The notes: generated by a model from the sequence alone, not told the origin. Counted from the stretch's first letter, positions 3,291 through 45,924 are shown. The stretch is DNA of 64,000 nt from an uncultured virus (IMG/VR IMGVR_UViG_3300008117_000258) (IMGVR_UViG_3300008117_000258), one strand, 5' to 3'. Made by a program: numbers and translations.

Positions 3291-3929
3291 ATGGCTAACT
3301 ATAGTCGTGGTACATCAACTAACATTATCGTTGGTGCAGCAGCAGTATTTATTGCTGACACAACACTAACACCAGCAGACGTAACTGCTTTTGAGTCTTC
3401 AAAGACTTACAGAGATACACTTACAAATGATGCTGATTACACCAATGTTGGTTACACAATGAATGGTCTTGAACTGCAGTTCCAACCTGACTTCGGTGAA
3501 GTTAGAGTTGACCAGATTCTTGACGTTGCTAAACTTTACAAGCAGGGTATGCAGGTAAACCTTGCTACTGCTTTTGCTGAAGCAACACTAGAAAACCTTC
3601 TTCTTTCTTTGGCTTATAACGATGACGAACTTTCAGGAACAAAGTCAACTTCAAACGGAAGAGCATTGAATCTTTCCGCAGGAGATATCGGCGAATGTCC
3701 AGTTGAACGTGCTATCGTTGCAGTAGGCCCAGGAACAGGAGACTGCGTAGATTCTTCTTACGTAGAGCGTGTTTACACAGCATACCGTGCACTTTCTATT
3801 GAAAATGTTACAGTATCAGCAAAGCGTGACGAAGCATCTATGTTTGAGGTTTCATTCCGTCTTCTTCCAGAAGACACATCAGGTTCATATGGTAAGATCG
3901 TAGATCGTACCTGGACACCTGCTTCATAA
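3291..3929 (+). CDS. Major tail (tube) protein
   Basis: NIIVGAA..., VGYTMNGLELQFQPDF.EVRVDQ, AEATLENL, FEVSFRLLP motifs; own promoter and terminator; upstream of chaperones and tape measure. Confidence 0.85.
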   Translation: MANYSRGTSTNIIVGAAAVFIADTTLTPADVTAFESSKTYRDTLTNDADYTNVGYTMNGLELQFQPDFGEVRVDQILDVAKLYKQGMQVNLATAFAEATLENLLLSLAYNDDELSGTKSTSNGRALNLSAGDIGECPVERAIVAVGPGTGDCVDSSYVERVYTAYRALSIENVTVSAKRDEASMFEVSFRLLPEDTSGSYGKIVDRTWTPAS

Positions 3930-3948
3930 TTTAATAGATTATACGACA

Positions 3949-3980
3949 GGCCCATCTCTTCGGAGGTGGGCTTTGTTGTT
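3949..3980 (+). terminator. Rho-independent terminator
   Basis: GGCCCATCTC-TTCG-GAGGTGGGCT stem-loop with T-rich tail. Confidence 0.85.
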
Positions 3981-3989
3981 TGGTATAAT
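3981..3989 (+). promoter_or_regulatory. Extended -10 promoter, leaderless transcript
   Basis: TGGTATAAT, 6 nt, then ATG 3996 with no RBS. Confidence 0.7.
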
Positions 3990-3995
3990 GAAATA

Positions 3996-4712
3996 ATGGC
4001 TACTAGAATATATAATGTACAAAAAATAAAGTTAATTAATGGCAGAGAACTTGAACTTGGTCCATTAAAAATAAAATACCTAAGAGATTTTATGGATTGT
4101 TTCCATAAAGTTAATGAGTCAAGTACAGAAGATGAAGCCATATCTATTTTGGTTGAATGCGTAAGAATAGCAATGGAGCAGTATTGCCCAGAAATATCAA
4201 CATCAACAGAACTTATTGAAGACAACATGGACCTTCCAACTGTATATAAAGTTTTAGATATTGCTGGTGGAATAGAAGTAAGTAGTAATTCAGAAGAAAA
4301 TGTAAAAGATCAGGCAATAAAGTCAGATGAAAAAACATCATGGAAAGACCTAGATCTTGCTAAACTTGAGTCTGAAATTTTTACGTTGGGAATTTGGAAA
4401 GATTATGACCAATTAGAAAGAAATTTATCAATGCCTGAACTAGTAGCAACAATGTCTGCAATTAGAGAATTAAGTTATCAAGAAAAAAAGTTTATGGCAG
4501 CAATTCAAGGAGTAGATATTGATTCCCAGGCTGGAGAAACAAAGGGACAAAAAGAATGGGATGACCTAAAAGCAAGAGTATTTTCTAAAGGTGCTACAGA
4601 TGATTCCAATGATGTTTTGGCACTGCAGGGAGTTAATGCACAAAAGGCTGGATTTGGTATTGGCTTAGGCTTAGATTATGAAGACCTAAAAGACCCTTCT
4701 GTTATGCTATAA
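3996..4712 (+). CDS. Tail assembly chaperone, long (GT-like) form
   Basis: Between major tail and tape measure; N-terminal ~95 aa paralogous to the next gene; start moved from 3966 to ATG 3996 because 3966 lies in the terminator. Confidence 0.75.
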   Translation: MATRIYNVQKIKLINGRELELGPLKIKYLRDFMDCFHKVNESSTEDEAISILVECVRIAMEQYCPEISTSTELIEDNMDLPTVYKVLDIAGGIEVSSNSEENVKDQAIKSDEKTSWKDLDLAKLESEIFTLGIWKDYDQLERNLSMPELVATMSAIRELSYQEKKFMAAIQGVDIDSQAGETKGQKEWDDLKARVFSKGATDDSNDVLALQGVNAQKAGFGIGLGLDYEDLKDPSVML

Positions 4713-4713
4713 T
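4705..4713 (+). promoter_or_regulatory. Extended -10 promoter (TGCTATAAT)
   Basis: Overlaps stop of the long chaperone; AGGAGG RBS precedes ATG 4744. Confidence 0.65.
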
Positions 4714-4743
4714 TAACTTAACCTTATAGGAGGGGTAAAATAG

Positions 4744-5076
4744 ATGAGCACTACCGTAAATGAAGAAAAAACAATCGTTTTGATTGACGGTACTAAGGTT
4801 AATATCAGACCACTAAAAATTTCTCTTCTTCGTGAATTTATGAAGAAGTTTGAAGGTCTGGCAAAGGTACAAGATAACAATGATAAGTCAATGACACTTC
4901 TTATTGAGTGTGTACAAATTGCTATGAAGCAGTATGCACCAGAGGTGGCGGGGGACATTGCAAAACTTGAGGACATTATTGATCTTCCAACCGTATATCA
5001 AATCATTGAAGCAGCATCAGGAATTAATCTAACTGAGTCTGCACTAATTGCACTTTCATCAGCGCAAAACGAATAA
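4744..5076 (+). CDS. Tail assembly chaperone, short (G-like) form
   Basis: Directly before tape measure; shares PLKI, LRxFM, ECVxIAMxQYxPE, DLPTVY with the upstream gene. Confidence 0.75.
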   Translation: MSTTVNEEKTIVLIDGTKVNIRPLKISLLREFMKKFEGLAKVQDNNDKSMTLLIECVQIAMKQYAPEVAGDIAKLEDIIDLPTVYQIIEAASGINLTESALIALSSAQNE

Positions 5077-5098: not shown

Positions 5099-8000
5099 AT
5101 GGCAGGAGATACTAATACCAATATTTTTATAGGTATTGATACAACTCAAGCCATGGCACAACTTCGTGCCTTAGAAAAAGAGTTAACTGCCCTTAACCGT
5201 GCCATGATTACTGGCACCTCAACTGCTGCTCGTGAGCAAGGCAGATATGCCCAGTCATTAATGCACAACGTTAATGCAACTGGACTCTGGACTGCATCAA
5301 CAATGAAGATGAGCAGTGCTACAGAACAGTTTGCTAATAGTCTTGATAAGGGAAAGTTATCTCTTAAAGAATATTACAGATATGGAATGGCTTCTACAAA
5401 AACTTTCGGTAAGTTTTTTGGTAGCGAATTTAGCACTGTAAGTAAGTTAATAGATAATCGTGTAAAAACACTTCAGCAGCAATATGTTCAGTTGGGTCGT
5501 GACGCTCAGGGCGCAATGAACTCAATGAGGTTTAGGCCAAAAACATTAAATTATAATGATTTAACTACTAGTTTAATGTTGGCTACTCAACGTCACCAAG
5601 TACTAAATAAACTTATTGATGATGGTTCAACAAAACTATTAAACTTTGGTAAGAATACCCAGTGGGCTGGTCGTCAGTTGATGGTTGGTTTTACAATACC
5701 ATTAGCCATGTTTGCTGGATCAGCAATAAAAACATTTAAAGAACTTGAAACACAGGTTATTAGATTTAAAAAGGTATATGGAGATATATACACAGAAAGT
5801 GGTGAGTCTGCAAAAGCACTAAAAGACATTCGTGCACTTGCAAATGAATATACTGCTTATGGAGTTAAAGTTTCAGATACAATTAAAATGGCTGCTGATG
5901 CAGCAGCAATGGGTAACACTGGAGAAAATCTTAAAAACATTGTAAGGCAGACTACAGACCTAGCAGTTCTTGGTGGTATTACACAAGAGCAAGCACTTAA
6001 TACAACAATATCTTTGCAAAATGCTTTTGATATTAGAGGGTCAGAACTTAAAAAAACAATTGACTTCTTGAATGCTACAGAAAACCAAACTGTATTAAGT
6101 TTGGAAGATGTTTCAGAGGCAATCCCAAGAGTTGCTCCAATCGTAAAAGCACTTGGTGGAGATGTTAAAGACTTAACATATTTTATGACTGCAATGAAAG
6201 AAGGTGGAATTTCTGCAGAACAAGGTGCTAACGCACTTAAGTCAGGTCTTGCATCTTTAATTAACCCAACAAAAGCAGCGACTAAAGCAGCAGGACAATA
6301 TGGAATAAGTATTAAGGGTATAGTTGAAGCAAATCAAGGTAACTTAAGAAATACTGTAGTTGGTTTTGCAAATGCATTAAAGCCACTGACAGACTTGCAG
6401 AGAGCGCAAGTAGTTGAAAAGGTTTTTGGTAAGTATCAATTTGCAAGAATGAGTACACTTCTTAATAACCTTACAAAAGAAGGATCTCAGGCAGCCAGAG
6501 TTTTGCAACTAACAACAGCCAGCGCAGAAGAACTTGCAATACTTACAGAACGTGAAAAGAAAACCCAAGCAGATTCTGCAATGAATAAACTTGCACAGGC
6601 TGCTGAAAGACTTAAGGTTGCCATGGCTCCAATAGGAGAAATGTTTGCAAAAATGGTAATTCCTATTGCAGAGTTTTTCCAAAAAATTCTTGATAGATTT
6701 TCTACTTTGCCAGAAGGTGTTAAAAAGTTTGCAGGGCTAATGATCACTGCAATAGGTGGCATTGGCCCAGTTCTCTTGATGACCGTAGGTCTTGTTGCCA
6801 ACGGTATTGCAAATATGCTAAAACTGTTTAACTTAATGCGTAAGGGTTATCAGCAACTTGCATATGGATCACAGGATGTTGCACTAAAAACACAATACTT
6901 ATCACAAGAAGAACTAGAAAATGCATCTATAACCAATGCACTTTATACAAAGCATGAAGCACTATCTGCAGCATATAGATTAGAGGCACAGTCACTTGGT
7001 GCATTGATGTCAGTATATCGTCAAGCAAATACATCAATGAGTTCATTTGCAGCAAACAACAGTGGGCTATTTGTTCCAAGAGGAATTGCTCCAAAACGAT
7101 TTGCAAAAGGAACAGAAAGTGTTCCAGGACCAAGAGGAGCAGGAGATATTGTTCCAGCGATGTTGTCACCTGGAGAATCAGTCATTCCAGCAAAACAAAC
7201 CGCTAAGTATGGTGGTTTTATTTCTCAAATTATTAGTGATAATGTTCCAGGATTTGCAAGTGGACCAGGATTCTGGACACCACCAAAGGTAACTGGTTCT
7301 GCAATATTTGGTCCTGCAGCAAAAGTTTTTGAACCAAAAATAGATTTAACTTCTCCAGGTTCTGTTAGGGCATTAGGAGTTACTAGGTTTAAACCTCTTC
7401 CTGGTGGAGATATTGCACAGGTTATGCCAAGATCAAATGTTTCGTCAATGACACCGTTTTTCTTTAGACCAAATGCAAAAGATCCAAAGTTAACTGATGT
7501 TTTCTTTAATGGAGATTTGTTGTTTACCAGAAAGTTTAATTCTGTAAAAGACCAAGCAAAATATAATGAAAACTATGGTAAGTTCAAAGCAAAGAACACA
7601 AATAATAGTGATGAAATTTTGCTAAGAAATGTAACAGACTTACTTTCAAGAAAAAATGCACAAGATCTAACAGCAAGTAAAATTTTTAGTTCAACTCTTG
7701 GTGGAAAAAGAACTAGTGCTGTTTCTTCAGCAGCAAAATCACGCAGAACACGATATATTCAAAAGAAAGAATTCTTAGCATTACAGAAATACTTTAAGGA
7801 AGAAGAAGAGTATATTAGAAATAATCCATCAATGACTATGGATGATTTAGTTAAACTTACTGCTCCTGCTGCAAAAATTGAAGGAAGAAGACTTAAAGAT
7901 ATTCTTGCAGAAAAACAAGATAGAGGAATGTTTAGACTTTCTCCAGCACTAAGCCATGGAGAAGCAGCAAAAACTAATAAAAGAAGTGCAGATCAAGATG

Positions 8001-11000
8001 TAGCATCTAATCTTTTTGAAGATACAAACCAAATGAATCTTGTGTATCTTTATAATGGAAATAGAACACACATCTCTACTAGAAGAGAAGCAGAGTCATT
8101 TCTTCAAGAATTAAGATCAAAAAAGAATCCAAATTCTTTTGATAAGTATGGAATGCTTGCTTTAGAAAAAAGAATTAGAGATGGTTTTTATGAAAAGTAT
8201 AAGACAAGGCAAGATGAATTGCTTATGCTTTCTAATGGAATTTTGTCAGTTCCTGGTCCAAAGGGAGCGGGAGACATTCAGCCTGCAATGCTTGCTCCTG
8301 GTGAAGCGGTAATTCCTGCAAAGCAAAGTAAAAAATATAGCGGTCTTATATCTGGAATTATGTCAAACCAAATACCTGGTTTTGAAAATGGTCCTGGGTT
8401 TGGTGTTCCAGCATCATTAAGGCCAGGCGGTAAATATACTGACGATTGGGGAGACCCAATAAGCCCAACATCTTCTTCAAATGATAGAGTTGGAAGAGCA
8501 ATTGACAAATTCTTTGATAAACCAAGAGTTAAAAAACTTGGGGATAGAATTGATAGATTTGCTTCACAGTTAAACAAAACAACACCAAAAGTTGCTCAAC
8601 TTGGACAAACAGCAACACAAACAACAAAAGATTTTGGAACTGACAAGACAAGAGGTTTTAGAGGATTTATGACTGGGTATTCCAGGGTACCTCAAGTAGA
8701 TGAAACTGGAGCCAGATTAACTGCAGCACAAAGAACAAATGCAAGACAGGCAATGCGTATGGAGCGAAGTCAAAGAATGATGGGTGTCGGTATGGCAGCC
8801 ATGATGGTTCCTATGGTAGCAGGAGCATATGCAGCAAAGAATCCAGATAGTGGTGTTGCACAAAACATGGATAAGATAATGATGCTTTCTATGCTTCCTA
8901 TGCTTCTTCCATTAATTAATAGCCCTATTAAAATTTTAGCAACATCGTTGATTGGTCTTTCAGCAGTATTTAAAATGCAATCAAGTCAAATTAAACAGTC
9001 GTTAGTTGATGGTGAAAAACAAGCAAAAGCAATGGTAATGACTACAGAAAATCTTGAGGCTTTAGGACGATATACTCAAAAGGTTTCTGTGGGACAAGTA
9101 GCAGCAGCACAAAGAGAAGGAAGAACAAAGGAAATTACCCCAGTCTCAATGGACTATGGAACTAATTTCTTAAACTCTGAAGCAGGAAAACAATTTAAGG
9201 CAAATTTTGATAGCACAATAAAAACTCTTGGAGAATCTGGAACTGCTCAAGCAGCAAGCATAGTAGCCTCACAATTAGCAACGGCAGTACAACAGGGTGT
9301 AATAACCCCAGAACAGGCTCAATCAATTGCAATTAAACTAACAAGAGATCTAAAAGATGCAAGACTAGAGATGAATGTGCGTGGCAAATTAACAGAAATT
9401 CTAGGACCTAATGGAGAAAACCTAGTAACAGATCCATTGTCTGTTCAGGTAAAACTTATTTCAGAAGGAAAAACTTTACAAGAAGCAATATTCTTAAATT
9501 ATCAAAAAGCAATTACAGATGTAAATAAGGGAATTGGCCCAGACATTAAACTGAATCCGTTAAAGGGTGTTGGAGGAAATCGTGCTAATGAACAACCAGG
9601 CGGTGCAATACTTGGTAATCCAATAAACTGGAGCGAAACTGCACAAATGCAAGGTTTGGCAGCAACTGTTGGAAGTGCAAGTTTTATAAAGATTTTAAAT
9701 ACAGTTAGAACTGCAAGAGCAGCAACTGCTGCAGCAACTGCTGGAACAGCAGCAGCAACCGCAGGAACAGCAGGAGCAGCATCACCTGCACTGATCGCAG
9801 CAGCAGGATCACTTGCCATAACAAGCACAGCAGAGTGGCTATTAAGAAAGTGGCAACAGGGAGAAGAAAAGAAGTTTATTACAAAGTATGCAGGAACTCT
9901 TGCTGGAATAGTAACCCCAAATATATTGGCTGGACAGGGAGCATTTAAGCAGCAACTATTGAATAAGTTTAAGGATGATCCATACCAAAAGGCTCAAGCA
10001 GAATCACTCACAAAACAACTAGAAGGAACAACTGCAAAAGCACAAATTGAAATAATGACTTTAGTTAATTCTGATCAAATGACAGTGACTCAGGCAAAAG
10101 CATTAACAACAACACTTCTTGCTACAGGCGAAAAGAATATTGATAGAACAATTAATACAATACTAAATGTTCAAGGAACAGAAGGCTTAGGAAGACTTGC
10201 AACTATTTTGGAATTTATTCCAAATGTAAATAATCAAAAAAATATTCTTTTTGCAATTAAGAATTTAGATGAAGCATCTGCCAACGATATATATTCTGGA
10301 CTTGAAGAACTTATAAAGATTCCAGATTACATAGGAATTGAAATAGATCTTGAAACACAGAAAGATGATATTCCTACATTAAAGAGACTTGGAAAAGAAG
10401 TTGGTTCTTTAAAGAAGGCTTTTCCTAATGGAAAAATTGACCTTAAGGCTTTAGTAGATTTACAACAAAAGTCTGGTGGACCAGGAAATAATCTAACTCT
10501 TGATAAAGCAATTGAAAGTTGGACAACTCTTTCTAAACTTCCTAAAGAGTTACAATTCCAAGCAATGATAACTTTAGGAGCATTGAATAAGTCAGACTCT
10601 TTTGATACTGTCGTAAATAGAGAAGTTCTTGCTGCATATAGAAAAGCAAATCCAAAAGCAAGAAAAATTACTAAGTCTGCACTTGACTCTTTTGCAAAAA
10701 ATAATCCACAGATAAGAACAAAAGCAGAAGAAATTGCAATGATTGAAATATTTGGAACCTCTATACCAAGCACATCTAAGTCAGGTGGGGGAGCAGCAGG
10801 TGGTGAAGGAACCAAGAAAGATAACTCCTGGCTAGTTGACCTTGCACAAAAACTTAAACTTGTAAAAGATTCATCAATAGATGCTTTAAATCCATTAAAG
10901 TCAATCCAAAAATTCCTTAGCGGAGATATTTCTGGACAAGGCGGGGGAAGCGTAAAAAGCAATAAGTCTCTTGACAAACAACTAGGTGCAATTAAGCAAA

Positions 11001-13207
11001 TTGATCAACTTGCTCTTGCTGGCAATGTTGGTGGCTTATCTGATGACTTCCGTGAAATTTTGATGAACATGGACCCAGAACAATTTAATATTTGGGCAAA
11101 AACATTATTTAAGGTTGGCAAAGAAGGAAGAATAACTGGACTAAAGCAAGACTTTATTGATATCAATAGTGCATTTAAAACTAATACTATTGGACAATAT
11201 ATTGAAGATGAAAAGAAATCAAATGATGAAATCAGAGATCGTGTTAATGCATATTGGAGATTAACTGATGTTGCTAAGCAGTATAAGTTTACTGCAGCAG
11301 AAACACTTGATTTATTAAAGAATCAATCTTTAGTAGGAGATATTGCTAATGGAGTTATTTATTCAAAAGAAGAACTTGAATCTCTTGTTTCAATAAATAA
11401 AGAAAGAAGAGATTTACTAAATAGAGAAACTACCGCAAAACAATTCCAAGAAAACTCTCAAATTAAAATGCAAATAGATGCATTTAAAAAGTTAAAAGAT
11501 TCTGGAATTGAATTTGAAACAATTTTGCAGATTATTGGAAAGTCAGACTGGGCAGCAAATGTACTAGACGCAACTGGAAAGATACAAGATGAATTCCCTA
11601 ATATGATTAAGTCTGCAAAAGAATATAAGGACTTACTATTTGAATTACAGCAGTTGCAAGAATCTGAATCAGATAAAATGGGACAAAAGTTTGCTGCTGA
11701 AAATGCAAAAATTATTGCTAAGGGAATGGCTAGTTTTAGAAAAGCAAATGGAATGTCGGTTGAGCAATATCAAGTTATTACTCAAGAAAGAGAAAATGCA
11801 AAGCAGGCATTGCAAGAACAGGTTGACGTATTAAATAATGGATTTACTGTGTTGGACAAACTTGAAAGTTCAATCAATGATTCTTATACACAAAAGAATA
11901 CTCTTATTGATGAGCAAATATCTGCATTACAAAAGGTTTCTCAAATCAATGAAGAAATTGCAAATCAGCAAAGAGATCAACTTGATTTGGCAGGAGCAAT
12001 TACCTCTGGAGACATTGCAGCAGCAGCCCAGGCAGCACAACAGTATCGTTCAAACAGAGCAAGAGCATCTGAATCATCGGCTATTGATGCTTTAAATACA
12101 AGAAAAGATATTCTTGAAAAACAAAAACTTAAAGATATTGCAGCACTTACAACTACAATTAACGGCATTACATATACAAGGCAGCAACTAGTTGACAAAA
12201 TTGCATCAATTGAAGAAAATCAAATAAAAGCATTGACTGATGAAATTAATGCAAGAAATAAAATTGTTGAAGCGCATGATCAACAAATTGCAAAAGCACA
12301 AGCATTGCTTGAGATTAATGGATATACTCAGGCAGAATATGAAGCAATTAAAACTGCTGTTGATACTGTTAATAATGCACTTGACCAACAAGTTTTAGAC
12401 ATTAATGAAATAATTTCTGCTGTAGGTGGAATTGAAGCAGCATGGGTCAAAGTTGCAGCAGCAGCAAGTGCAGCAACTGGAAAATCCAAAACATCTGATA
12501 AAGGTACGGCGACTAATAATGCTTCAAATCAAAGTACTGGAGGAAATCCAGGAAACATTGACGATGTACGTAAAACTGTAACAGAAGATACTGATAAATT
12601 AATAAATTCAATAAAAACAGGAGCAGATCCTGGCATTCTTACTGCTGGAGTTATTGCAAATAAAATGGCAGAAGCACTATTGAATAATGCAGAAGCAAAA
12701 GAAGCCCTTGGTGGAGCAGCAGGAGTTTTATCATCTGCACGATATACTGGACAGGCAATAGCATTTGCAGCAGAAAAAGCAGCAGCAGAAAGAGCAGCAG
12801 CATATGCAAAAGCAGCAAATACTGAGTCATATTATAATAGAAGAACTGGCGGAAGTAGCAGCATGGCATTCCTGGCATCTGGAGGAATGGTACCTAAGTA
12901 TTTTGCTAACGGAGGATATTCTCGTGGAACTGACACAGTGCCATCTATGCTTACCCCAGGAGAATTTGTTGTCAAGCGCTTTGCCGTAAAGAAGTTTGGT
13001 GTTGATAATCTCAGGGCAATTAATGATGGAACCTATCAGTCTGGAAAGTCAACAGTGGCATCAGTAAATAACAACTCCAACTCAGTGTATAATTATGGTA
13101 TAAACGTTAACGTTTCTAATACTAATGCAAGTACAGATGATATTGCAAGGGCAGTTATTACTCAGATTAGAAACATTGATAACCAAAGAATTAGAGGACA
13201 AAGGTAA
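5099..13207 (+). CDS. Tape measure protein (2702 aa)
   Basis: Length, Ala-rich helical composition, TP901-type core region, hydrophobic segments, position after chaperones. Confidence 0.93.
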   Translation: MAGDTNTNIFIGIDTTQAMAQLRALEKELTALNRAMITGTSTAAREQGRYAQSLMHNVNATGLWTASTMKMSSATEQFANSLDKGKLSLKEYYRYGMASTKTFGKFFGSEFSTVSKLIDNRVKTLQQQYVQLGRDAQGAMNSMRFRPKTLNYNDLTTSLMLATQRHQVLNKLIDDGSTKLLNFGKNTQWAGRQLMVGFTIPLAMFAGSAIKTFKELETQVIRFKKVYGDIYTESGESAKALKDIRALANEYTAYGVKVSDTIKMAADAAAMGNTGENLKNIVRQTTDLAVLGGITQEQALNTTISLQNAFDIRGSELKKTIDFLNATENQTVLSLEDVSEAIPRVAPIVKALGGDVKDLTYFMTAMKEGGISAEQGANALKSGLASLINPTKAATKAAGQYGISIKGIVEANQGNLRNTVVGFANALKPLTDLQRAQVVEKVFGKYQFARMSTLLNNLTKEGSQAARVLQLTTASAEELAILTEREKKTQADSAMNKLAQAAERLKVAMAPIGEMFAKMVIPIAEFFQKILDRFSTLPEGVKKFAGLMITAIGGIGPVLLMTVGLVANGIANMLKLFNLMRKGYQQLAYGSQDVALKTQYLSQEELENASITNALYTKHEALSAAYRLEAQSLGALMSVYRQANTSMSSFAANNSGLFVPRGIAPKRFAKGTESVPGPRGAGDIVPAMLSPGESVIPAKQTAKYGGFISQIISDNVPGFASGPGFWTPPKVTGSAIFGPAAKVFEPKIDLTSPGSVRALGVTRFKPLPGGDIAQVMPRSNVSSMTPFFFRPNAKDPKLTDVFFNGDLLFTRKFNSVKDQAKYNENYGKFKAKNTNNSDEILLRNVTDLLSRKNAQDLTASKIFSSTLGGKRTSAVSSAAKSRRTRYIQKKEFLALQKYFKEEEEYIRNNPSMTMDDLVKLTAPAAKIEGRRLKDILAEKQDRGMFRLSPALSHGEAAKTNKRSADQDVASNLFEDTNQMNLVYLYNGNRTHISTRREAESFLQELRSKKNPNSFDKYGMLALEKRIRDGFYEKYKTRQDELLMLSNGILSVPGPKGAGDIQPAMLAPGEAVIPAKQSKKYSGLISGIMSNQIPGFENGPGFGVPASLRPGGKYTDDWGDPISPTSSSNDRVGRAIDKFFDKPRVKKLGDRIDRFASQLNKTTPKVAQLGQTATQTTKDFGTDKTRGFRGFMTGYSRVPQVDETGARLTAAQRTNARQAMRMERSQRMMGVGMAAMMVPMVAGAYAAKNPDSGVAQNMDKIMMLSMLPMLLPLINSPIKILATSLIGLSAVFKMQSSQIKQSLVDGEKQAKAMVMTTENLEALGRYTQKVSVGQVAAAQREGRTKEITPVSMDYGTNFLNSEAGKQFKANFDSTIKTLGESGTAQAASIVASQLATAVQQGVITPEQAQSIAIKLTRDLKDARLEMNVRGKLTEILGPNGENLVTDPLSVQVKLISEGKTLQEAIFLNYQKAITDVNKGIGPDIKLNPLKGVGGNRANEQPGGAILGNPINWSETAQMQGLAATVGSASFIKILNTVRTARAATAAATAGTAAATAGTAGAASPALIAAAGSLAITSTAEWLLRKWQQGEEKKFITKYAGTLAGIVTPNILAGQGAFKQQLLNKFKDDPYQKAQAESLTKQLEGTTAKAQIEIMTLVNSDQMTVTQAKALTTTLLATGEKNIDRTINTILNVQGTEGLGRLATILEFIPNVNNQKNILFAIKNLDEASANDIYSGLEELIKIPDYIGIEIDLETQKDDIPTLKRLGKEVGSLKKAFPNGKIDLKALVDLQQKSGGPGNNLTLDKAIESWTTLSKLPKELQFQAMITLGALNKSDSFDTVVNREVLAAYRKANPKARKITKSALDSFAKNNPQIRTKAEEIAMIEIFGTSIPSTSKSGGGAAGGEGTKKDNSWLVDLAQKLKLVKDSSIDALNPLKSIQKFLSGDISGQGGGSVKSNKSLDKQLGAIKQIDQLALAGNVGGLSDDFREILMNMDPEQFNIWAKTLFKVGKEGRITGLKQDFIDINSAFKTNTIGQYIEDEKKSNDEIRDRVNAYWRLTDVAKQYKFTAAETLDLLKNQSLVGDIANGVIYSKEELESLVSINKERRDLLNRETTAKQFQENSQIKMQIDAFKKLKDSGIEFETILQIIGKSDWAANVLDATGKIQDEFPNMIKSAKEYKDLLFELQQLQESESDKMGQKFAAENAKIIAKGMASFRKANGMSVEQYQVITQERENAKQALQEQVDVLNNGFTVLDKLESSINDSYTQKNTLIDEQISALQKVSQINEEIANQQRDQLDLAGAITSGDIAAAAQAAQQYRSNRARASESSAIDALNTRKDILEKQKLKDIAALTTTINGITYTRQQLVDKIASIEENQIKALTDEINARNKIVEAHDQQIAKAQALLEINGYTQAEYEAIKTAVDTVNNALDQQVLDINEIISAVGGIEAAWVKVAAAASAATGKSKTSDKGTATNNASNQSTGGNPGNIDDVRKTVTEDTDKLINSIKTGADPGILTAGVIANKMAEALLNNAEAKEALGGAAGVLSSARYTGQAIAFAAEKAAAERAAAYAKAANTESYYNRRTGGSSSMAFLASGGMVPKYFANGGYSRGTDTVPSMLTPGEFVVKRFAVKKFGVDNLRAINDGTYQSGKSTVASVNNNSNSVYNYGINVNVSNTNASTDDIARAVITQIRNIDNQRIRGQR
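7100..7273 (+). repeat. Tape-measure internal peptide repeat, copy 1 (58 aa)
   Basis: FAKGTESVPGPRGAGDIVPAMLSPGESVIPAKQ...VPGFASGPGF; 38/58 aa identical to copy 2 by manual alignment. Confidence 0.9.
8228..8401 (+). repeat. Tape-measure internal peptide repeat, copy 2 (58 aa)
   Basis: LSNGILSVPGPKGAGDIQPAMLAPGEAVIPAKQ...IPGFENGPGF. Confidence 0.9.
12902..13030 (+). repeat. Tape-measure peptide repeat, diverged C-terminal copy
   Basis: FANGGYSRGTDTVPSMLTPGEFVV shares the DxxPxMLxPGExV core. Confidence 0.75.
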
Positions 13208-13833
13208 TGGCAACAGTAGCATACATGACTCAAAGAAGGAAATATCAAAGACCTCAAGGTATTTTGTGGTCTGAGAATCCTGGAACACTGGTTGACGGTT
13301 TGTATGTTCCAACTGGGTATGAGGTTGGTGGAAACTACCCAGAAGATGCTAACCCAAATCTAATTGATCAGTTCTTAGTTTTATCTGACCATAATCGTAA
13401 TGAAATGGATTTTACTTCACAAAGAATTGAACAACGTCAAAGAACAATTAATGGAAGAATGAGATCATATCACATTGCAGATAAACTACAAATGTCTGTT
13501 TCATGGACTAACTTGCCATCAAGATCACATGACTCTGACCCTAATTTTTCTTTTCAAAATTCAATAACTGATGCAGCCCCGTATACCGCTGACGGAGGAG
13601 CAGGCGGATCAGAACTTCTTGATTGGTATGAAAACCACAAAGGATCATTTTGGATGTTTTTAGCATATGACAAATATAAAAATTTTGAAAACACTGATAA
13701 CCCATATTTACATTTAAATCAATATAACCAGGTTATTGAAGTTTATTTTTCAAGTTTTAATTACTCTGTTGTTCGCCGAGGTGGAAGCAATCATGATCTT
13801 TGGAATGTAACACTTAGTTTAGAAGAGGCATAA
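13207..13833 (+). CDS. Minor tail protein (distal tail-like)
   Basis: First gene after tape measure; QRQRTINGRMRSYHIADK...SVSW motif, ends SLEEA. Confidence 0.7.
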   Translation: MATVAYMTQRRKYQRPQGILWSENPGTLVDGLYVPTGYEVGGNYPEDANPNLIDQFLVLSDHNRNEMDFTSQRIEQRQRTINGRMRSYHIADKLQMSVSWTNLPSRSHDSDPNFSFQNSITDAAPYTADGGAGGSELLDWYENHKGSFWMFLAYDKYKNFENTDNPYLHLNQYNQVIEVYFSSFNYSVVRRGGSNHDLWNVTLSLEEA

Positions 13834-13834
13834 A

Positions 13835-16800
13835 ATGTTTGTTGATGAAACATTAAAAAATCATTTTGAAACTTCTTCAACAATAAGTTTAAACTCTCTT
13901 GTTCTTGTAGAGTGGAACATGAATATGCCAGATAACATATTTAAGGTTGGTAATTATAGGTATCGCCCACAAGAATTAGGTAGCGAATATTTTACATTAA
14001 TTCAAAGTTTTGATGCAACTGATTCTGGAAACTATTATACTGGAGCAACTGAGTCTAACATTATAGTTGAAAATGGATATACAGATGAAGATATTCCTCA
14101 AATGTTTTTATCAGTAAAAGAAAAAGAAAAACTTTTTTACTCGTTACAGGATTGTCTGGCTCCATTTAGACCACGATCTGGAATTAACAAACCACTTTAT
14201 TTTTCTGGAAGGTATTTGGCAAACTCTGGAGCAAATATGGCAGAAAGACCAAGATACTACATGCCGTCTAGATATGATCAGTTTAAGTATTGGACTTCTT
14301 ACAGAACAGAATCAAATAAAGAATATGGAATATCAAATACTAGAGTAGAAGACGAATATTATATTTCTGATGCTGTACCATTTGTTGTTTATAAGGAAGA
14401 GGTTCCAACCAACCGAATTGTTGTAAAAATGCAAACAAATGTTGGTGATATTGATTTAGGTCCATTTCAAACATCAACCGAAAGCATTGATGATCCTCTG
14501 TATGGAGATCAAAACAAAACAGTACCAGTAAAATGGAAAATACAATATTTAAAAAACAACAACTGGGTTGATGCTTATTCTTTTGATCAAAATACATTAA
14601 GAGATGATGGAACACCTGCAATTAAATCAGATGGATATATTGAATTAGAGTTTGGCGCAATTATTCCAGAAGAATACCAAGGTATATTTTTTCATGCACA
14701 AACTATTTCAAGTGTTACACTTTTGCCATCAGAGTCTATTATTGGCTATACTTATCATGTTATTGAAAATGAAGGAGATGCTGGAACATTTTATATATGG
14801 AACGGCTCTGAGTATAAAAATTTTCCAGTAGTATACGGATGGAAACTTGGATCTGAAGCAATAAACAATAATACAGATTTTGTAACAGACTTTACTTCTC
14901 CATCAACTTATGTTGATTATGAAAATAATTCAACCCTTTATAGAGAATTTATATATATAAAAGGATTAAGAATTGTTGCTGAAACAATGAACAAGTTTGA
15001 CTGCACCTTTGATCTTATTGAGATGTCCCCAAGACTTGTGGCAAATATATCAAATAAAGTAATTGACTATAGAATTACAAAAGTTTTATCTGACATAGGA
15101 AATACATCTTTACCAGTTGGACAACTTTTGGCATCAACTGGCGAAGTTAATATTTTTGACGAAGACCAATCCTTTAATTATGAAAACACTTCAAGCATTA
15201 TCAATAAGTACATAAGAAAAAATATTAAGTTTAACTTTTATGAAAATATTCTAAATGTTGAAGGTTTTAACTATTATGTTCCAATTAAGACTTTGTATTC
15301 TGATGGAATGCCACAGGCAGATGTAACTGCATCAACTTTAAATCTTAGTTTACGTGATTTTTATTTTTACTTTGAATCAATGACAGCGCCAAGAATTCTT
15401 TTAACCAATGTATCTTTAAGTTATGCAGTAAGCGTTTTGCTTGATTCTATTGGATTCACTAACTATTCTTTTAAAAGAACAGAGTCAGATAATGACCCAA
15501 TAATTCCATATTTTTTTATAGCACCAGACCAAAATGTTGCTGAAGTTCTTAATCAACTTGCAATATCAACACAAAGCGCAATGTTTTTTGACGAATATAA
15601 TAATTTTATAGTTATGAGTAAAAATTATATAATGCCTTCAGAAACAGACAGAAGTACTGACTTTGTTTTAATTGGTAATAATAATCAGTCTGATGAAGGA
15701 GTCATTGAGAATCAATCCTCTGGAAATTTACCAAACATTTTACAGATTTCTTCTAAGGATAAAAAAATCTATAATGATGGAAAAATTAACTATACTACAA
15801 GATATATTCAAAGATCATATGGTTCAGTAAGACAATCTAGTTTAATTGATAAAGAAAAAACATGGATATATAAGCCAGTTCTTTTGTGGGAAGTTGCAGG
15901 AACAGAAAACACTAAAACTATTAATGAGTTAGCGTCTAGACAGGGTAACTATGTATTAGGCGCAATGCCAATTAATTCAGATATACCAAATGTAGCGCCA
16001 ACAGTTGTAAATAATATTTTAACTAATAACGTTATAGATCTTGGAGAAAACGTTTATTGGCTTACAAGATATCAAGGATATTTTTATTCTAACGGAGAAA
16101 TAATTAAATATGATGCAGCAGAATTTAATATTACTGGTATAGGAAATGTTTGGATCTCTAGTAATCAAGAGTATCAAAAATATTTTTCTTCACTTGCATT
16201 TAATGGAAAGATCTACCCTACGGGACTTGTTAGAATTTATTCAAAGCCTTATTATGAAACAGCAAACGGGACAACAAGATTAAAAAATGGTGAAGTTGAA
16301 TCCCACGGAAGAGCACAGTTTGGAACAACAATAAGTAATCATTCATCTGGATTACCGTCGTACTGGTCAAATAATGACTATGTAAGAGCATGCGAAATGA
16401 GTTCAAATTATTTATTTACAACAGAGATTGATCCAACCTTACCATCAACAGAAGTAGGATCTGCTGGAGTAAATAACACTATATCAAAACAAACAACCAG
16501 AAATGGTGTTATTAAAAATTTTATGGCAGTTTCTAATAAAACAGAAACAACCGTTAACTCCTTTCAGTCAACTCAGTCTGGAACAATACAGTCTTCTGCT
16601 TTAGTAATGAATGGCCCTTCTTTTAAAACTACAGAGGTTCCATTAAATTATGTTTCTTATGTTTACAAAAATCTTGATAATGCCTATAGACATTTTGGAA
16701 CAAGAATGCGTATTGTTGGAAAAGTTGAAAATAATTTACAACGTTTTCAAACTCCTTTTGGTTCAACCTCATACTATCAAGTTAATGGATCAAATCCAAG

Positions 16801-18187
16801 CCAAAGCGTAACAATTGGAGGCGGATCTGGTGGATTAGCAGTAATGATTAATCCAGAAACAAACAACGGGTATTATTTTGAAATAGTTGCATTAACTGAA
16901 AATAACGTTGAATCTTATTTAAATATTAATTCTCAGGGACAAAGTGAAATACAAATTCATAATATTATATTCTATAAGATTAAGAAAGAGTCTGGAAGTT
17001 CTAAGGCAATACCAGTTAAACTTTGGGGTGGCCTATCAAGTATTTTAGTAGATGATGGAAACTTCACTGGACAGTATAGAATGACTGGCGAAGAGAATCC
17101 AACAGTTTATGACCTATCAATAGAATATGAAAATATCGGAACTAAAAGAAGATTTTATTTATATGTTAACAATAAACTAATTAAGGTAGTTGATGATAAT
17201 GATCCACTTCCAGTATACAACAACATGGCTTTATTTGTTCGTGGTTCATCAAGATGTATGTTTGAAAATATTTATGCGATATCAAAAAATTATTCTCAAA
17301 ATACAATATCAACCATATCTCCAGCAATACAAAGAGTTTTTGGTCAAACAGAAAATTCTTCTGCATACGTTAAAGAAACTGGATTATTTGGCGATAACGA
17401 AATAAACCTTAATGAGTCATTTAGGAAATATGCAATGAGTGGAGTTGTTCAATCCACTTATTTATCTGGCATAAGTGCCCAACAACCTCCAAAGTATAAT
17501 ATGTACTTTGAAGAATTTGGATCAATCATGAGAGAGTGTTCATACTTTAATATTAAATATGATCGTGCATATCCAGCACTTTATGCAAAACTTTCTCCAA
17601 CTTTTAACAGAATTAAGGGCTACGTTGTTTCTGGTTTTTACGCAGATTCATATGGGGCAGAATTTTTAATATTTAATTCAACTGATAAATCACTTGTTCT
17701 TGATGAAACAAGTGGAAACTATTTAAGAATTCAAGGCATTACATTTACTCAAGATACTACACATACATTAAGCGTTGACGAATATTATAGTAAACGAAGT
17801 AACTTGTCTGATCCAGAACTAAAAGGAACATCAGTTGTATATTCTCCATTAATTGAGCAACAAAAATATGACAATATTAAGTTGAGCAGGCTTACTTATG
17901 GTAAAAATGATTTTAGCATTGATACCCCGTATATACAAACAGAAGATGATGCTAACGCATTAATGGGTTGGATCACTGAAAAATTGATGACTCCTAAAAA
18001 AAATATTGGATTAAATGTTTTTGCAAATCCAACTTTACAACTTGGAGATATTGTTACAGTTGATTATAAAGATAATAATAATGTAAATATGATTTCTTCA
18101 ACATCTTCAAGGTTTATAATATATAATATTGAGTATTCAAGAAGTTCAGAAGGTCCTTCTATGGCTTTGTATTTGAGTGAGGTGTAA
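13835..18187 (+). CDS. Large minor tail / tail tip protein (1450 aa)
   Basis: Synteny; AMFFDEYNNF hub-like motif, lectin-like beta region, C-terminal NPTLQLGDIV motif. Confidence 0.75.
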   Translation: MFVDETLKNHFETSSTISLNSLVLVEWNMNMPDNIFKVGNYRYRPQELGSEYFTLIQSFDATDSGNYYTGATESNIIVENGYTDEDIPQMFLSVKEKEKLFYSLQDCLAPFRPRSGINKPLYFSGRYLANSGANMAERPRYYMPSRYDQFKYWTSYRTESNKEYGISNTRVEDEYYISDAVPFVVYKEEVPTNRIVVKMQTNVGDIDLGPFQTSTESIDDPLYGDQNKTVPVKWKIQYLKNNNWVDAYSFDQNTLRDDGTPAIKSDGYIELEFGAIIPEEYQGIFFHAQTISSVTLLPSESIIGYTYHVIENEGDAGTFYIWNGSEYKNFPVVYGWKLGSEAINNNTDFVTDFTSPSTYVDYENNSTLYREFIYIKGLRIVAETMNKFDCTFDLIEMSPRLVANISNKVIDYRITKVLSDIGNTSLPVGQLLASTGEVNIFDEDQSFNYENTSSIINKYIRKNIKFNFYENILNVEGFNYYVPIKTLYSDGMPQADVTASTLNLSLRDFYFYFESMTAPRILLTNVSLSYAVSVLLDSIGFTNYSFKRTESDNDPIIPYFFIAPDQNVAEVLNQLAISTQSAMFFDEYNNFIVMSKNYIMPSETDRSTDFVLIGNNNQSDEGVIENQSSGNLPNILQISSKDKKIYNDGKINYTTRYIQRSYGSVRQSSLIDKEKTWIYKPVLLWEVAGTENTKTINELASRQGNYVLGAMPINSDIPNVAPTVVNNILTNNVIDLGENVYWLTRYQGYFYSNGEIIKYDAAEFNITGIGNVWISSNQEYQKYFSSLAFNGKIYPTGLVRIYSKPYYETANGTTRLKNGEVESHGRAQFGTTISNHSSGLPSYWSNNDYVRACEMSSNYLFTTEIDPTLPSTEVGSAGVNNTISKQTTRNGVIKNFMAVSNKTETTVNSFQSTQSGTIQSSALVMNGPSFKTTEVPLNYVSYVYKNLDNAYRHFGTRMRIVGKVENNLQRFQTPFGSTSYYQVNGSNPSQSVTIGGGSGGLAVMINPETNNGYYFEIVALTENNVESYLNINSQGQSEIQIHNIIFYKIKKESGSSKAIPVKLWGGLSSILVDDGNFTGQYRMTGEENPTVYDLSIEYENIGTKRRFYLYVNNKLIKVVDDNDPLPVYNNMALFVRGSSRCMFENIYAISKNYSQNTISTISPAIQRVFGQTENSSAYVKETGLFGDNEINLNESFRKYAMSGVVQSTYLSGISAQQPPKYNMYFEEFGSIMRECSYFNIKYDRAYPALYAKLSPTFNRIKGYVVSGFYADSYGAEFLIFNSTDKSLVLDETSGNYLRIQGITFTQDTTHTLSVDEYYSKRSNLSDPELKGTSVVYSPLIEQQKYDNIKLSRLTYGKNDFSIDTPYIQTEDDANALMGWITEKLMTPKKNIGLNVFANPTLQLGDIVTVDYKDNNNVNMISSTSSRFIIYNIEYSRSSEGPSMALYLSEV

Positions 18188-28300: not shown

Positions 28301-28752
28301 AGATTAAAGAATCTAAAGATCCTTTGGTTAAATTTTTAAATTACAAACAATTGCCATACAAAGGTGAAGAGCAGTTTGTGGTGTCTTTTAAGCCTAGAGT
28401 TACCAAGGCTGGAAAGAAAATGGCAAACCTTGTAGTAGCAGATGCTGGAAGAGAACTTCATTCAGTTCTTTTTTGGGGAAGCCCAGAAGATAATGATGCA
28501 GTTAATGATATCTTTATTGCAAAGCAGTGCATGATGATTGTCTCAGAAGTAACTGAGGTTATGGAGGCTGTTCGTAAAGATAAAGGTGGAGAAGAGATTG
28601 CTAAAGAGTTTGCAGATATTATTATTCGCACACTAGACCTTTATGCAGGAATGGTTGAGGCAGGGTATACTAGAGAATCACTTGATTATATTCTAAAACA
28701 AAAAACAGAATTTAATAAGACTAGACCAGAGAAACATGGGGTACGATTTTAA
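25315..28752 (+). CDS. dnaE: DNA polymerase III alpha subunit with C-terminal in-frame MazG-like segment
   Basis: PHP motifs HVHTHYS, TDHG; GRGSAAGS; PDIDSD; YSFNKSH; last ~93 aa are MazG-like. Confidence 0.93.
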   Translation: MNYVGLHVHTHYSLMDGVATPEEYVNRAVELGMTAIAITDHGTLSGHRELHRIAKANGIKPILGIEGYLALDRHDKRDKSERVGPLDVNYFHIVLLAKNQQGLENLNKLNEISWTDGFYRKPRIDFEVLDKYGDGLIVLSACQGGLIAKAIENEEYAFAKEKVQWFKNRFKDDFYIELMPHNPKNINDELVALAKAFNVKVVVTPDCHHSDTSQKEIQEMMLLLNTHGKVLKDSTFEKSKKVDNMMERLDYLYGADRQMSFRTFDIHLLSYEEMKSAMAEQGHTDEEMFISSIEIADKVEDYDIKSGLDLLPVQYKKPMEELKNLAIEGLTERGLENNQEYLDRLEEELTIIGEKNFGPYFLVVRNMLNWAKKEGIMVGPGRGSAAGSLLCYALGITDIDPIKHGLLFFRFINPERNDFPDIDSDIQDNRRDEVKDYLVRQYRHVASIATFMQFKDKNIVKDVSRVLNIPLADANKVNKQIDTWDEYCTSKSAQWFREKYPEVEIYGEQLRGRIKGTGIHAAGVVTSKDPIFRYAPMETRSVAGQDDRIPVVAVDMGEAENIGLIKIDALGLKTLTVLKDCIDIIKEREGTKIDLLKINMDDANVYNMLSDGYTKGVFQCEAAPYTNLLVKMRVKNLEELAASNALVRPGAMNTIGKDYIAIKHGRQNPDYKHQILKTFTEETYGCILYQEQVMQACVHLGGMSMSEADKVRKIIGKKKDAKEFDVFKDQFIKGASQYVSPNQALDLWHDFEAHAGYSFNKSHAVAYSTLSYWTAWLKYHYPLEFMYSLLKNEKDKDARTEYLIEAKRMGISIKLPHINESDIDFKIEGKGIRFGLSSIKFISDKIAQRYIDARPFKSYAQLEEFTFTKGNGVNSRALQALRIIGAATFEDSPRNDQEIKENLYEYLNLPEFNMPVPQHYYAYIQEAEDYEETGSFVMLGMIKSIKRGKGWSRVEFLDKTGSVGIFDDENTTIETGKTYLILVSDNRIVNSVPADQIKESKDPLVKFLNYKQLPYKGEEQFVVSFKPRVTKAGKKMANLVVADAGRELHSVLFWGSPEDNDAVNDIFIAKQCMMIVSEVTEVMEAVRKDKGGEEIAKEFADIIIRTLDLYAGMVEAGYTRESLDYILKQKTEFNKTRPEKHGVRF
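28471..28752 (+). other. MazG-like NTP pyrophosphohydrolase domain, in frame with DnaE and lacking its own start
   Basis: SEVTEVMEAVRK...EEIAKEFADIIIRTLDL...KTEFNKTRPEKHG (ExxE...ExxD). Confidence 0.8.
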
Positions 28753-29765
28753 TGTCAGTAACAATGGAAGAGGTATTAGCACAGTTAGATCCAAGAATTC
28801 GTAAACGTCTTGGTGATGCAACAAATCAAAAGGTTGAATGTGCATCAACGCCTAGTTTTGGTCTTAATAGGGCATTAAAGGGTGGACTTCCATATGGTCG
28901 TCAAGTACTTATTTGGGGTTCAAAATCATCAGCCAAGTCCTCTTTGTGTCTTCAAATGATTGGTGAAGCACAAAAAGAAGGAAAGATTTGTGCATGGATT
29001 GATGCAGAAATGTCATATGATTCAGAATGGGCTGAAAAACTTGGAGTAGATTCAACAAAACTTATTTATTCACAAGCAAGAACTATTAATGAAATGGTGG
29101 ATGTAGGTACAAGCCTTATGAATGCTGGAGTTGATATAATTGTAGTAGACAGCATTACATCCCTGCTACCTGCTATTTATTTTGAGAAGGATACAGATGA
29201 ACTCAAGCAACTTGAAAACACAAAACAAATTGGTGCGGAATCAAGAGACTTTAGTAATGCTTGGAAAATGCTTAATTACGCTAACAATAAAGTCAAGCCT
29301 ACTTTGCTTGTTCTTATTTCTCAGTCTCGCAATAACATTAGTGCTATGTATACTAGCCAGCAGCCTTCTGGTGGTCAGGCTACTAAGTTTTATTCCTCTA
29401 CAGTTATTAAACTATTTTCTTCAGAGTCAGACAATCAAGCAATTAAAGGAAAGATTCAGGTAGGAGATAAACTAATTGAAGAGAAAATTGGTCGCAAAAT
29501 TAAATGGGAACTACAATTTTCTAAAACATCTGCTGGTTTCCAAAGCGGTGAATACGATTTTTATTTCAGGGGTGACAACATTGGTATTGATGGTATTGGT
29601 GATCTTGTTGATACTGCTGAACTTGCTGGAATCGTAGAACGCACAGGCGCTTGGTATAAACTTGAAGATGGCACAAAGGTACAAGGAAGAGAAGGCTTCA
29701 TTAATCGTGTCAAGGAAGACCTTGATTTGCAAGAATCTCTTAGAAGTAAGTTGATTAATGTCTAA
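28752..29765 (+). CDS. recA: RecA/UvsX-like recombinase
   Basis: GGLPYGR, variant Walker A GSKSSAKS, WIDAE, IVVDS, GAWY. Confidence 0.9.
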   Translation: MSVTMEEVLAQLDPRIRKRLGDATNQKVECASTPSFGLNRALKGGLPYGRQVLIWGSKSSAKSSLCLQMIGEAQKEGKICAWIDAEMSYDSEWAEKLGVDSTKLIYSQARTINEMVDVGTSLMNAGVDIIVVDSITSLLPAIYFEKDTDELKQLENTKQIGAESRDFSNAWKMLNYANNKVKPTLLVLISQSRNNISAMYTSQQPSGGQATKFYSSTVIKLFSSESDNQAIKGKIQVGDKLIEEKIGRKIKWELQFSKTSAGFQSGEYDFYFRGDNIGIDGIGDLVDTAELAGIVERTGAWYKLEDGTKVQGREGFINRVKEDLDLQESLRSKLINV

Positions 29766-45787: not shown

Positions 45788-45920
45788 TAAGCATCCATTT
45801 AATGCTACGCAAATTAAAGATGGCAGAATTGTTAAGTTAAGAAAAGATGGTCGCATTAAGGCTGACCTAGGTCCATATTATGCTAATCATAATAAGGTAA
45901 AACCAAAGAGAGTTGGCTAA
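45777..45920 (+). CDS. Small basic hypothetical protein (47 aa)
   Basis: Manual translation MGNNKHPFNATQIKDGRIVKLRKDG...; fills the operon gap. Confidence 0.55.
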   Translation: MGNNKHPFNATQIKDGRIVKLRKDGRIKADLGPYYANHNKVKPKRVG

Positions 45921-45924
45921 TCGT

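Follow-up and report, generated by a model that had tools for sequence, protein, structure and literature searches.

Why would the tape measure protein (TMP) of a long-tailed phage carry, between two copies of a repeat, a region that does not resemble the rest of the tape? We addressed this question in a 64,000-nucleotide stretch of DNA from an uncultured virus (IMG/VR IMGVR_UViG_3300008117_000258), hereafter the window. A reading made from the sequence alone had proposed that the repeats bracket an exchangeable effector domain delivered at infection, with a weak call of a nuclease. We found that the slot between the repeats is almost certainly an exchangeable cassette, and we lean somewhat toward the view that it is a TMP-borne polymorphic effector cassette of ~105-kb siphophages of freshwater Actinobacteria, ejected at infection. 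The features that carry the argument are these:

5099..13207, + strand: tail TMP open reading frame, 2702 amino acids (aa), by TMP domain and PHROG matches
5840..6430, + strand: PhageMin_Tail (PF10145) TMP domain, aa 248-444, Pfam E 1.6e-28
7100..7273, + strand: repeat 1, a "hook"-like TMP module, aa 668-725, with F/Y-A-x-G at both ends and invariant D and GE
7274..7744, + strand: N-terminal part of the cargo, a linker plus a low-confidence subdomain, aa 726-882
7745..8227, + strand: cargo core, a predicted globular His-Me/HNH-like domain of unconfirmed family, aa 883-1043
7955 (His953), 8009 (Asn971), 8036 (Asn980), and 8069 (His991), + strand: candidate site residues, by alignment and model
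8228..8401, + strand: repeat 2, aa 1044-1101
7324..8236, + strand: segment replaced by another allele in the close relative L156 (and in protein P0002), by DNA and protein comparison
12872..13057, + strand: repeat 3, the usual copy of the TMP module close to the C terminus, aa ~2592-2653

The protein is identified as a siphophage TMP by its PF10145 domain and by matches to ten PHROG TMP families, and the position of its gene matches that in a Streptomyces siphophage, with tail chaperone genes upstream and tail-tip genes downstream, the baseplate hub being encoded at 13835-18187. Two 58-aa repeats indeed lie around a 318-aa insert (7274-8227) as had been described, with 38/58 identical residues in protein and 111/174 identical positions in DNA (64%), and the diverged third copy noticed near the C terminus is present as well. 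Each copy in the window scores 64 to 80 bits against a profile built from related repeats, which excludes chance. The repeat has no Pfam family (best E 0.03 among 117 copies scanned). Terminal Cys/Ser and His-Asn are the hallmarks of inteins and Hint domains; inspected by eye, the repeat has neither, and a self-splicing element of this type was rejected. A second small variable patch lies just past repeat 2, at 8358-8579; one contig of run X14 has a replacement there, and L003 and L004 diverge over it.

We then compared the TMPs of closely related phages. Across flank, repeat 1, core, repeat 2, and flank, identities were 93, 89, 25, 91, and 83% between the window and P0002; 99, 95, 27, 93, and 87% between L041 and P0003; 91, 100, 32, 93, and 97% between L006 and L007; and 99, 91, 43, 91, and 88% between L008 and L010. 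In DNA, the window and L156 are ~83% identical through position 7323 and again from position 8237, with identity at noise level in between. The closest relatives carry highly divergent alleles of one domain family, and unrelated enzyme-like modules are added or substituted in distant phages; the expectation of unrelated inter-repeat domains thus held for the distant phages but not for the closest ones. The repeats had also been proposed as recombination anchors. Within the gene, the two internal repeats share only 64% of their DNA positions, whereas the allelic flanks of different phages are ~83% identical in DNA. The exchange is therefore most easily explained by recombination of one phage with another in these flanks, and the proposal stands between phages but not within the gene. 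The following gene product is a plausible agent of cassette exchange:

28752..29765, + strand: phage RecA (PF00154, E 4e-40)

Within its own population the window allele looks stable: it is intact, with few differences, in contigs of all four runs examined, and among the contig rows listed for these four runs we found neither a joint of repeat 1 to repeat 2 nor an alternative allele, contigs being prone to drop rare forms.

Free-standing homing endonucleases offer a model for spread by gene conversion. In the same way, the cargo could be a selfish or competitive endonuclease: it would cleave the DNA of related phages in the same cell, the rival allele at this locus included, and gene conversion between the conserved flanks would spread it. 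Such an element would fit the sharp allele replacement at a single locus, the His-Me-like motif described below, and the phage RecA. However, close relatives show no empty allele, the window allele is intact in contigs of four independent runs, and the kinase-, ADP-ribosyltransferase (ART)-, HAD-, and nucleotidyltransferase-like modules of other phages would be left unexplained, and we consider this explanation quite improbable.

The surroundings of the TMP gene are conserved. A homolog of the downstream tail gene lies within 900 nucleotides of the TMP gene in 81/94 loci and a homolog of the upstream gene in 111/122; the loci without the expected flanking genes mostly belong to other TMP families. 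Since the same tail genes flank the TMP gene, no immunity gene travels beside the cassette, and no cognate immunity gene was found next to the TMP gene at the window locus, where both flanks are tail genes. Immediately downstream is the following gene:

13207..13833, + strand: conserved downstream tail gene that leaves no space for an adjacent immunity gene, by open reading frame call, PHROG, and locus comparison

What else occupies the slot? A scan of IMG/VR with TMP aa 401-725 yielded 78 loci, all of which carry the repeat; repeat 1 lies within this query and supplied one of its six seed patterns. Scanning with an alignment of the repeats, which selects for the repeat, gave 69 more loci, partly overlapping. 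Of 153 proteins, 140 have the family N-terminal domain and the repeat; they provided 138 cargo zones, which collapsed to 91 cargo types at 90% identity. The first repeat lies at aa ~656-692 in loci with a complete 5' end, and 248 to 1272 aa separate the internal copies; this spread, together with the variable number of copies, agrees with the exchangeable slot that had been predicted. Module labels on the 91 types come from profiles built on those same sequences. With these, the family of the window domain (family A) was found in 31 types, kinase-like modules in 37, ART-like modules in 7, HAD in 4, and DUF3626-like modules in 3; some module with a His...Asn pattern, grouped by eye, is present in 65/91. 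The slot opens with a repeat copy, at a constant place behind the first hydrophobic segment described below, and holds one to three modules of ~200-350 aa; these are exchanged as alleles, gained, lost, and rearranged at complete or collapsed repeat copies. TMP lengths in the family range from ~1,800 to ~3,800 aa. The 38 architectures that we distinguished include A alone, A-kinase, kinase-A, kinase-A-repeat-ART, kinase alone, and kinase-E-HAD. Protein P0004 has the order repeat-A-repeat-kinase-repeat, and module joints (21, chosen by hand) retain short F/Y-x-x-G-G remnants of the repeat, which together suggest that every module was formerly fenced by a full repeat copy. In L135/L141, L132, L144, and L123/L148 (TMP aa ~690-1140), the first full repeat comes 300-480 aa later than in most TMPs of the family, with a module ahead of it.

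Three slot domains have external support: HAD phosphatase (PF03767), above the cut-off in 4/48 cargo segments; a cytidylyltransferase in the slot of L068 (phrog_3041, E 9.7e-10); and DUF3626 in the slot of L094 (E 2.9e-6, just below the cut-off). The kinase-like modules share an invariant K, E, and D-x-D, with a single weak Pfam match (PI3_PI4_kinase, E 0.006, in L015), and the ART-like modules share an R..S/T..E-x-E pattern. The first scan placed none of 34 cargo segments above the Pfam cut-off.

The prevalence of the His...Asn module raises the possibility of a genome pilot, in which the basic His-Me-like domain would bind the incoming phage DNA where the TMP channel opens into the cytoplasm and pull, nick, or shield it, with the other enzymes as optional passengers. 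The commonest occupant of the slot would then serve a near-core function, the insert is basic, some members of the His...Asn type appear by eye to have no His (L066, L068, and L144), and a TMP-fused RNA polymerase with a proposed coupling to DNA entry is a precedent in phage P23-45 (PMC10770324). A core entry function, however, should neither swap 25%-identical alleles between near-identical phages nor be replaceable by kinase-only or DUF3626-only cargo (L103 and L077), and we hold this explanation to be improbable.

Another reading starts from the ART-like modules in 7 of the 91 types. ARTs of 24 freshwater phages have been read as anti-protist toxins (PMC6802176), and the cassette could similarly be a Trojan horse aimed at grazing protists, given the shared habitat and predicted host group. 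Here, however, the protein that carries the modules is one ejected into the bacterial cell, the window cargo is not an ART, and the ART-like modules miss PF03496, the family counted in that work (0/5 records); the tape measure is not mentioned in the eight supplementary files of PMC6802176 that were searched. We give this explanation very little weight.

We then analyzed the cargo of the window itself. Lysine and arginine make up 17.6% of the 318-aa insert and alanine 7.9%, compared with 11.9% and 12.2% in aa 1-540, which supports the description of a basic insert unlike the alanine-rich tape; this richness is not restricted to the insert, because the linker past repeat 2 (aa 1102-1226) is equally basic (19.2% lysine plus arginine). 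The N-terminal part of the cargo is homologous throughout family A, with a predicted local distance difference test (pLDDT) score below 60 for aa 798-875. The core (aa 883-1043) is predicted to be globular (pLDDT 92.7; predicted template modeling score 0.87), in agreement with a longer model. Since slot length and copy number vary among relatives and the fold is globular, the inter-repeat region is not the conserved, colinear, extended helix that would have refuted the sequence-only reading. The LSH...SNL...N motif that had been pointed out is present, as His953, Asn971, and Asn980. The model is a helical bundle in which one strand ends at His953, a second strand follows Asn971, and a helix bears Asn980 (strands 67-71 and 90-94 and helix 95-103 in model numbering, at the level of secondary structure). 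His953 and Asn980 are invariant in 26/26 family-A rows, most of which share 13-39% identity with the window, and Ser952, His991, Leu1022, Arg1025, and Tyr1031 are conserved in 25/26. In Cas9 HNH and colicin E9, the His-Me site has the same spacing, with an Asn before strand 2 and a conserved Asn nine residues on, in the helix. At the level of predicted secondary structure, the window domain likewise places a His at the end of strand 1 and a potential metal-ligand Asn on the helix. The invariant residues and the predicted topology, which come without a significant database match, raise the nuclease assignment from weak to moderate, and we slightly favor the prediction that the window cargo is a His-Me (beta-beta-alpha-metal) nuclease.

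In comparisons with L004 and L155, the core shows ratios of nonsynonymous to synonymous substitution rates (dN/dS) of 0.13 and 0.18, respectively, and is thus under purifying selection. These values bear on the idea that the cargo is neutral filler that only tunes tail length, its enzyme-like motifs being relics. TMP length does set tail length (PMC1796659, PMC12617516), and the family spans a wide range of lengths, as noted above. A confident globular fold, invariant putative catalytic residues, dN/dS well below 1, and intact HAD and cytidylyltransferase matches nevertheless make filler most improbable.

A search of 1.84 billion representative sequences gave 10 matches to family A: five full TMPs, one TMP fragment, two short proteins, and two likely false matches (P0009 and P0010, which look repetitive and were excluded). 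Family A may be restricted to TMPs, but the short matches P0005, P0008, and P0011 come without known context. P0005 (262 aa) is a family member of deviant composition in which no repeat was detected; it may be encoded by a gene of its own or be a fragment. Other homolog searches returned family members or nothing, the ESM Atlas gave no usable match for the L078 module, and the GmrSD_C and Endonuclea_NS_2 profiles each matched 0/5 records. The best viral fold match was the TMP of another uncultured phage (A0A6J5NFG6; template modeling score 0.52, E 0.34, not significant). Matches of the fold searches to HNH, to endonuclease VII, and to a Cas9 chain were at noise level only (E > 1, Z 2.1) and were not used as evidence. 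Profile-profile links among the hand-made His...Asn families mostly failed, and only E-G reached 47.5%. In L101, L133, and L134, the Asn...Asn half precedes the His strand in the first module after repeat 1; by eye, these modules look circularly permuted relative to the His...Asn pattern (profile link to family E, 4.7%).

Is the repeat special to this system? Its profile matches 101 records of cultured phages, 82 of them Gordonia phages, and it occurs two or three times in the TMPs of Douge (two), Hosp, and Bunnybear. The TMP of phage JBD30, gp46, contains a single copy at residues 1018-1068 (E 1.4e-7). Residues 1022-1066 of gp46 are predicted to form a hook, a beta-hairpin with two helices, and the authors speculate, by analogy with T5, that cleavage occurs at 1066, with the hook anchoring the chain in the baseplate (PMC11445458). 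Lambda gpH scores 11.7 bits at 721-807 with an expanded repeat profile (best of 200 shuffles, 0.4) and loses ~14 kDa from the region of this match, with the site and the catalyst unknown (PMC12617516). In the TMP of Gordonia phage Bunnybear, an SLT (lytic transglycosylase) domain (1237-1327) abuts a repeat (1324-1374). The sequence comparisons thus show the repeats to be additional copies of a module general to TMPs and not something special to this system. The grammar of a hook copy followed by an enzyme is therefore old, and the freshwater lineage fills it with other chemistry. In the TMP of Mycobacterium phage Hosp (L158, aa ~1010-1615), two repeats fence a Cys...His segment that looks NlpC/P60-like by eye and has no Pfam match.

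How would the cargo reach its target? Two sets of hydrophobic segments bracket the slot:

6740..6796, + strand: first hydrophobic segment (aa ~548-566; Kyte-Doolittle peak 2.03, from hydropathy only), which precedes repeat 1 by ~120 aa and keeps its place throughout the family
8777..8959, + strand: weaker hydrophobic pair (aa ~1227-1287) that closes the cassette loop (peaks 1.52 and 1.54; hydropathy only)

In a cassette-free Streptomyces phage TMP, the matching segments (539 and 715/743) lie close together, ~175 aa apart; the cassette therefore appears to be an insertion in one soluble loop. No hydrophobic peak was found in the slot of 45/50 two-repeat cargo types. Kinase, ART, and nucleotidyltransferase chemistries require ATP, NAD, or NTPs from the cytoplasm, from which we infer that the cargo loop, or a piece cut out of it, reaches the cytoplasm.

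TMPs fill the tail lumen and exit before the DNA in lambda (PMC12617516) and T5 (bioRxiv 2022.09.20.507954), and in Douge too. We propose that the cargo would be carried unfolded inside the tail lumen, where it would do no harm to the cell that makes the phage, be ejected with the TMP ahead of the DNA, and refold on the cytoplasmic side of the membrane, possibly cut free beside the hook copies as are T5 pb2C and lambda gpHC. Unfolded travel would explain the absence of an adjacent immunity gene. The window module, with His953 as the base and Asn980 and possibly His991 as metal ligands, would attack nucleic acid of the host or of a competitor during the first minutes; the kinase- and ART-like modules of relatives would modify host proteins; and alleles would be exchanged by homologous recombination of co-infecting relatives in the conserved flanks. 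By analogy with the known TMPs, a functional enzyme is probably ejected at infection, and cleavage at the repeats, to which the same analogy extends, seems a little short of an even prospect.

Several results weigh against this effector reading. For the nuclease, the insert has no family match in Pfam or PHROGs, profile searches of the PDB with the window domain found nothing, the ESM Atlas gave no usable match for the window module, and six fold searches with two models returned unrelated helical bundles at best (Z 4.6), with no Foldseek match at E <= 0.001. Asn971, the structural Asn before strand 2 in the window, is variable across the family, and the other His...Asn families, grouped by eye, link to family A with a profile-profile probability of <=0.25%. 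The kinase and ART labels are motif based, with HipA_C and PF03496 matching 0/5 records each and no match in the PDB. For the repeat, the hook and the cut in JBD30 are predictions of its authors, the narrower repeat profile missed lambda gpH, and T5 pb2 is not matched. For delivery, a periplasmic site of action has been proposed for the enzyme that follows the anchor in T5 (bioRxiv 2022.09.20.507954); because of this enzyme and of the wall hydrolase in Bunnybear, the position of the slot alone does not imply the cytoplasm, and the hydrophobic pair at aa 1227-1287 could form a hairpin that leaves the slot outside.

These last points would suit an envelope enzyme, that is, cargo released outside the membrane to act on wall or surface polymers, like T5 pb2C and the motifs in mycobacteriophage TMPs. 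The SLT domain abutting the repeat in Bunnybear is a parallel from a cultured actinophage, T5 shows the order of anchor, cut, and enzyme (pb2* binds the opened hub with its C-terminal 42-43 residues, and the cut separates a metallopeptidase; bioRxiv 2022.09.20.507954), and motif 3 of TM4 gp17 is a wall-hydrolase-type motif embedded in a TMP (PMC1796659). Pfam scans of 34, 48, and 26 cargo segments, however, found no wall-hydrolase family, and the cytoplasmic cofactors of kinases, ARTs, and nucleotidyltransferases speak against such a location, which leaves this explanation decidedly improbable.

Taking the effector cassette together with the repeat matches, we can formulate a broader and rather speculative reading, which we do not expect to hold in all its parts. 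The repeat would be a general processing and anchoring signal of siphophage TMPs, its internal copies would turn the TMP into a polyprotein cut beside each of them for staged ejection, and the freshwater actinophages would have made of it an injection magazine of recombining new nucleases, kinases, and ARTs directed against host defenses or rival phages, loaded unfolded and hence free of immunity genes.

The window belongs to the genome of a tailed phage. WhiB, used as an actinophage marker in PMC6802176, is encoded in 4/5 records examined, namely, the nearest virus record and three near-complete ~105-kb relatives; the fifth record is a 62-kb fragment. Among 20 rows for runs containing the window stretch, 11 are labeled freshwater or lake, 8 fungus metagenome, and 1 metagenome. 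Among cultured phages, large Streptomyces siphophages have the most similar TMPs, with 26-35% identity confined to the N-terminal part (48/51 records). Most other carriers of the stretch have a TMP of 2781 aa: an extra 237 in-frame bases are present at 9937/9938 in contigs of the four runs examined, and the TMPs of L002 and L005 are 79 aa longer than that of the window. The shorter TMP of the window reflects either a rare deletion or a collapse of this segment in the assembly. Upstream of it lie the following genes:

3291..3929, + strand: probable major tail protein (phrog_2175, E 2e-34; phrog_885, major tail, E 0.033; gene order)
3966..4712 and 4744..5076 (span 3966..5076), + strand: two tail-assembly-chaperone-like paralogs directly upstream of the TMP gene, by PHROG

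The first paralog (3966-4712) matches phrog_10504 and phrog_10474, as a fused G-T-like form, and the second (4744-5076) matches phrog_10504 alone; duplication of the chaperone gene may have replaced the usual frameshift pair. Elsewhere, the window encodes a subtilase-family protease (42554-43423; PF00082, E 5e-13) that is a candidate TMP processor, a staphylococcal-nuclease homolog (45913-46332), a tryptophan-halogenase-like protein (49435-51003), a carbamoyltransferase (56930-58489, - strand) that could modify DNA or surface glycans, and a pyrimidine-dimer glycosylase (61981-62454, - strand).

If the effector reading is true, long-tailed phages have, beside head-packaged pilot proteins, a second route to arm the first minutes of infection, here in phages of the dominant freshwater Actinobacteria, hosts with poorly known defenses. 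The slot also brings to light a pool of highly divergent domains, candidate nucleases, kinases, and transferases, for which current libraries have no annotation. The analysis also names a family-less module beside the cleavage zone of lambda gpH (PMC12617516), and the question of processing can be tested in lambda, JBD30, and Gordonia or Mycobacterium phages.

The cassette works like a polyvalent or polymorphic effector carrier. Polyvalent and MuF-fused effectors (PMC5512222) are virion proteins that concatenate kinase, ART, nucleotidyltransferase, and nuclease domains for delivery with the DNA, with mosaic orthologs; similarly, several distinct enzyme-like domains are concatenated here in shuffled architectures (38 in 91 types, with self-built profiles), and delivery into the host with the DNA is inferred from TMP ejection in lambda, T5, and Douge. 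The carrier differs, being a tail TMP here and a head protein there, and the modules here are fenced by repeats; the word "tape" does not occur in the main text of PMC5512222, and scans of TMP and cargo with Pfam profiles (not the profiles of PMC5512222) gave no match to the marker domains of polyvalent proteins (MuF, MPTase, and LPD families). Polymorphic toxin systems also combine a conserved carrier with a recombining variable domain, which here is internal rather than C-terminal and may be toxic; because an adjacent immunity gene is absent, the cassette is not such a system in the strict sense.

Among TMPs, those of actinophages (TM4 gp17, Bunnybear, Hosp, and Douge) also contain enzyme domains, and the latter three carry the same repeat; their domains are wall hydrolases, whereas the cargo here is nuclease-, kinase-, or transferase-like and exchanged between close relatives. 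In Thermus phage P23-45, the giant TMP gp96 includes a cytoplasm-acting enzyme, the virion RNA polymerase (PMC10770324); this is one conserved N-terminal enzyme, in contrast to an internal, repeat-fenced, polymorphic slot. The hook of JBD30 gp46 (PMC11445458) is homologous to the repeat and lambda gpH (PMC12617516) weakly so, each beside a proposed or known cut, and T5 pb2 is linked to the repeat solely through the analogy drawn by the JBD30 authors; the JBD30, T5, and lambda TMPs have one copy near the C terminus, whereas extra internal copies fence the cargo here. His-Me nucleases share with the window domain a His that ends a strand, an Asn before strand 2, and a conserved Asn nine residues later on a helix, but the window domain has no significant match to them, its middle Asn is variable across the family, and its helical bundle is unlike solved folds. 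Nothing in the literature searched, from which subscription journals were largely missing, describes a TMP slot that is fenced by repeats and holds polymorphic enzymes. Enzymes in TMPs and polyvalent virion proteins were thus known already; what appears to be new is their combination in a repeat-fenced polymorphic TMP slot, together with a confidently predicted fold with a His-Me-like site, an allele swap with mapped edges, and a sequence link between the repeat and the JBD30 hook.

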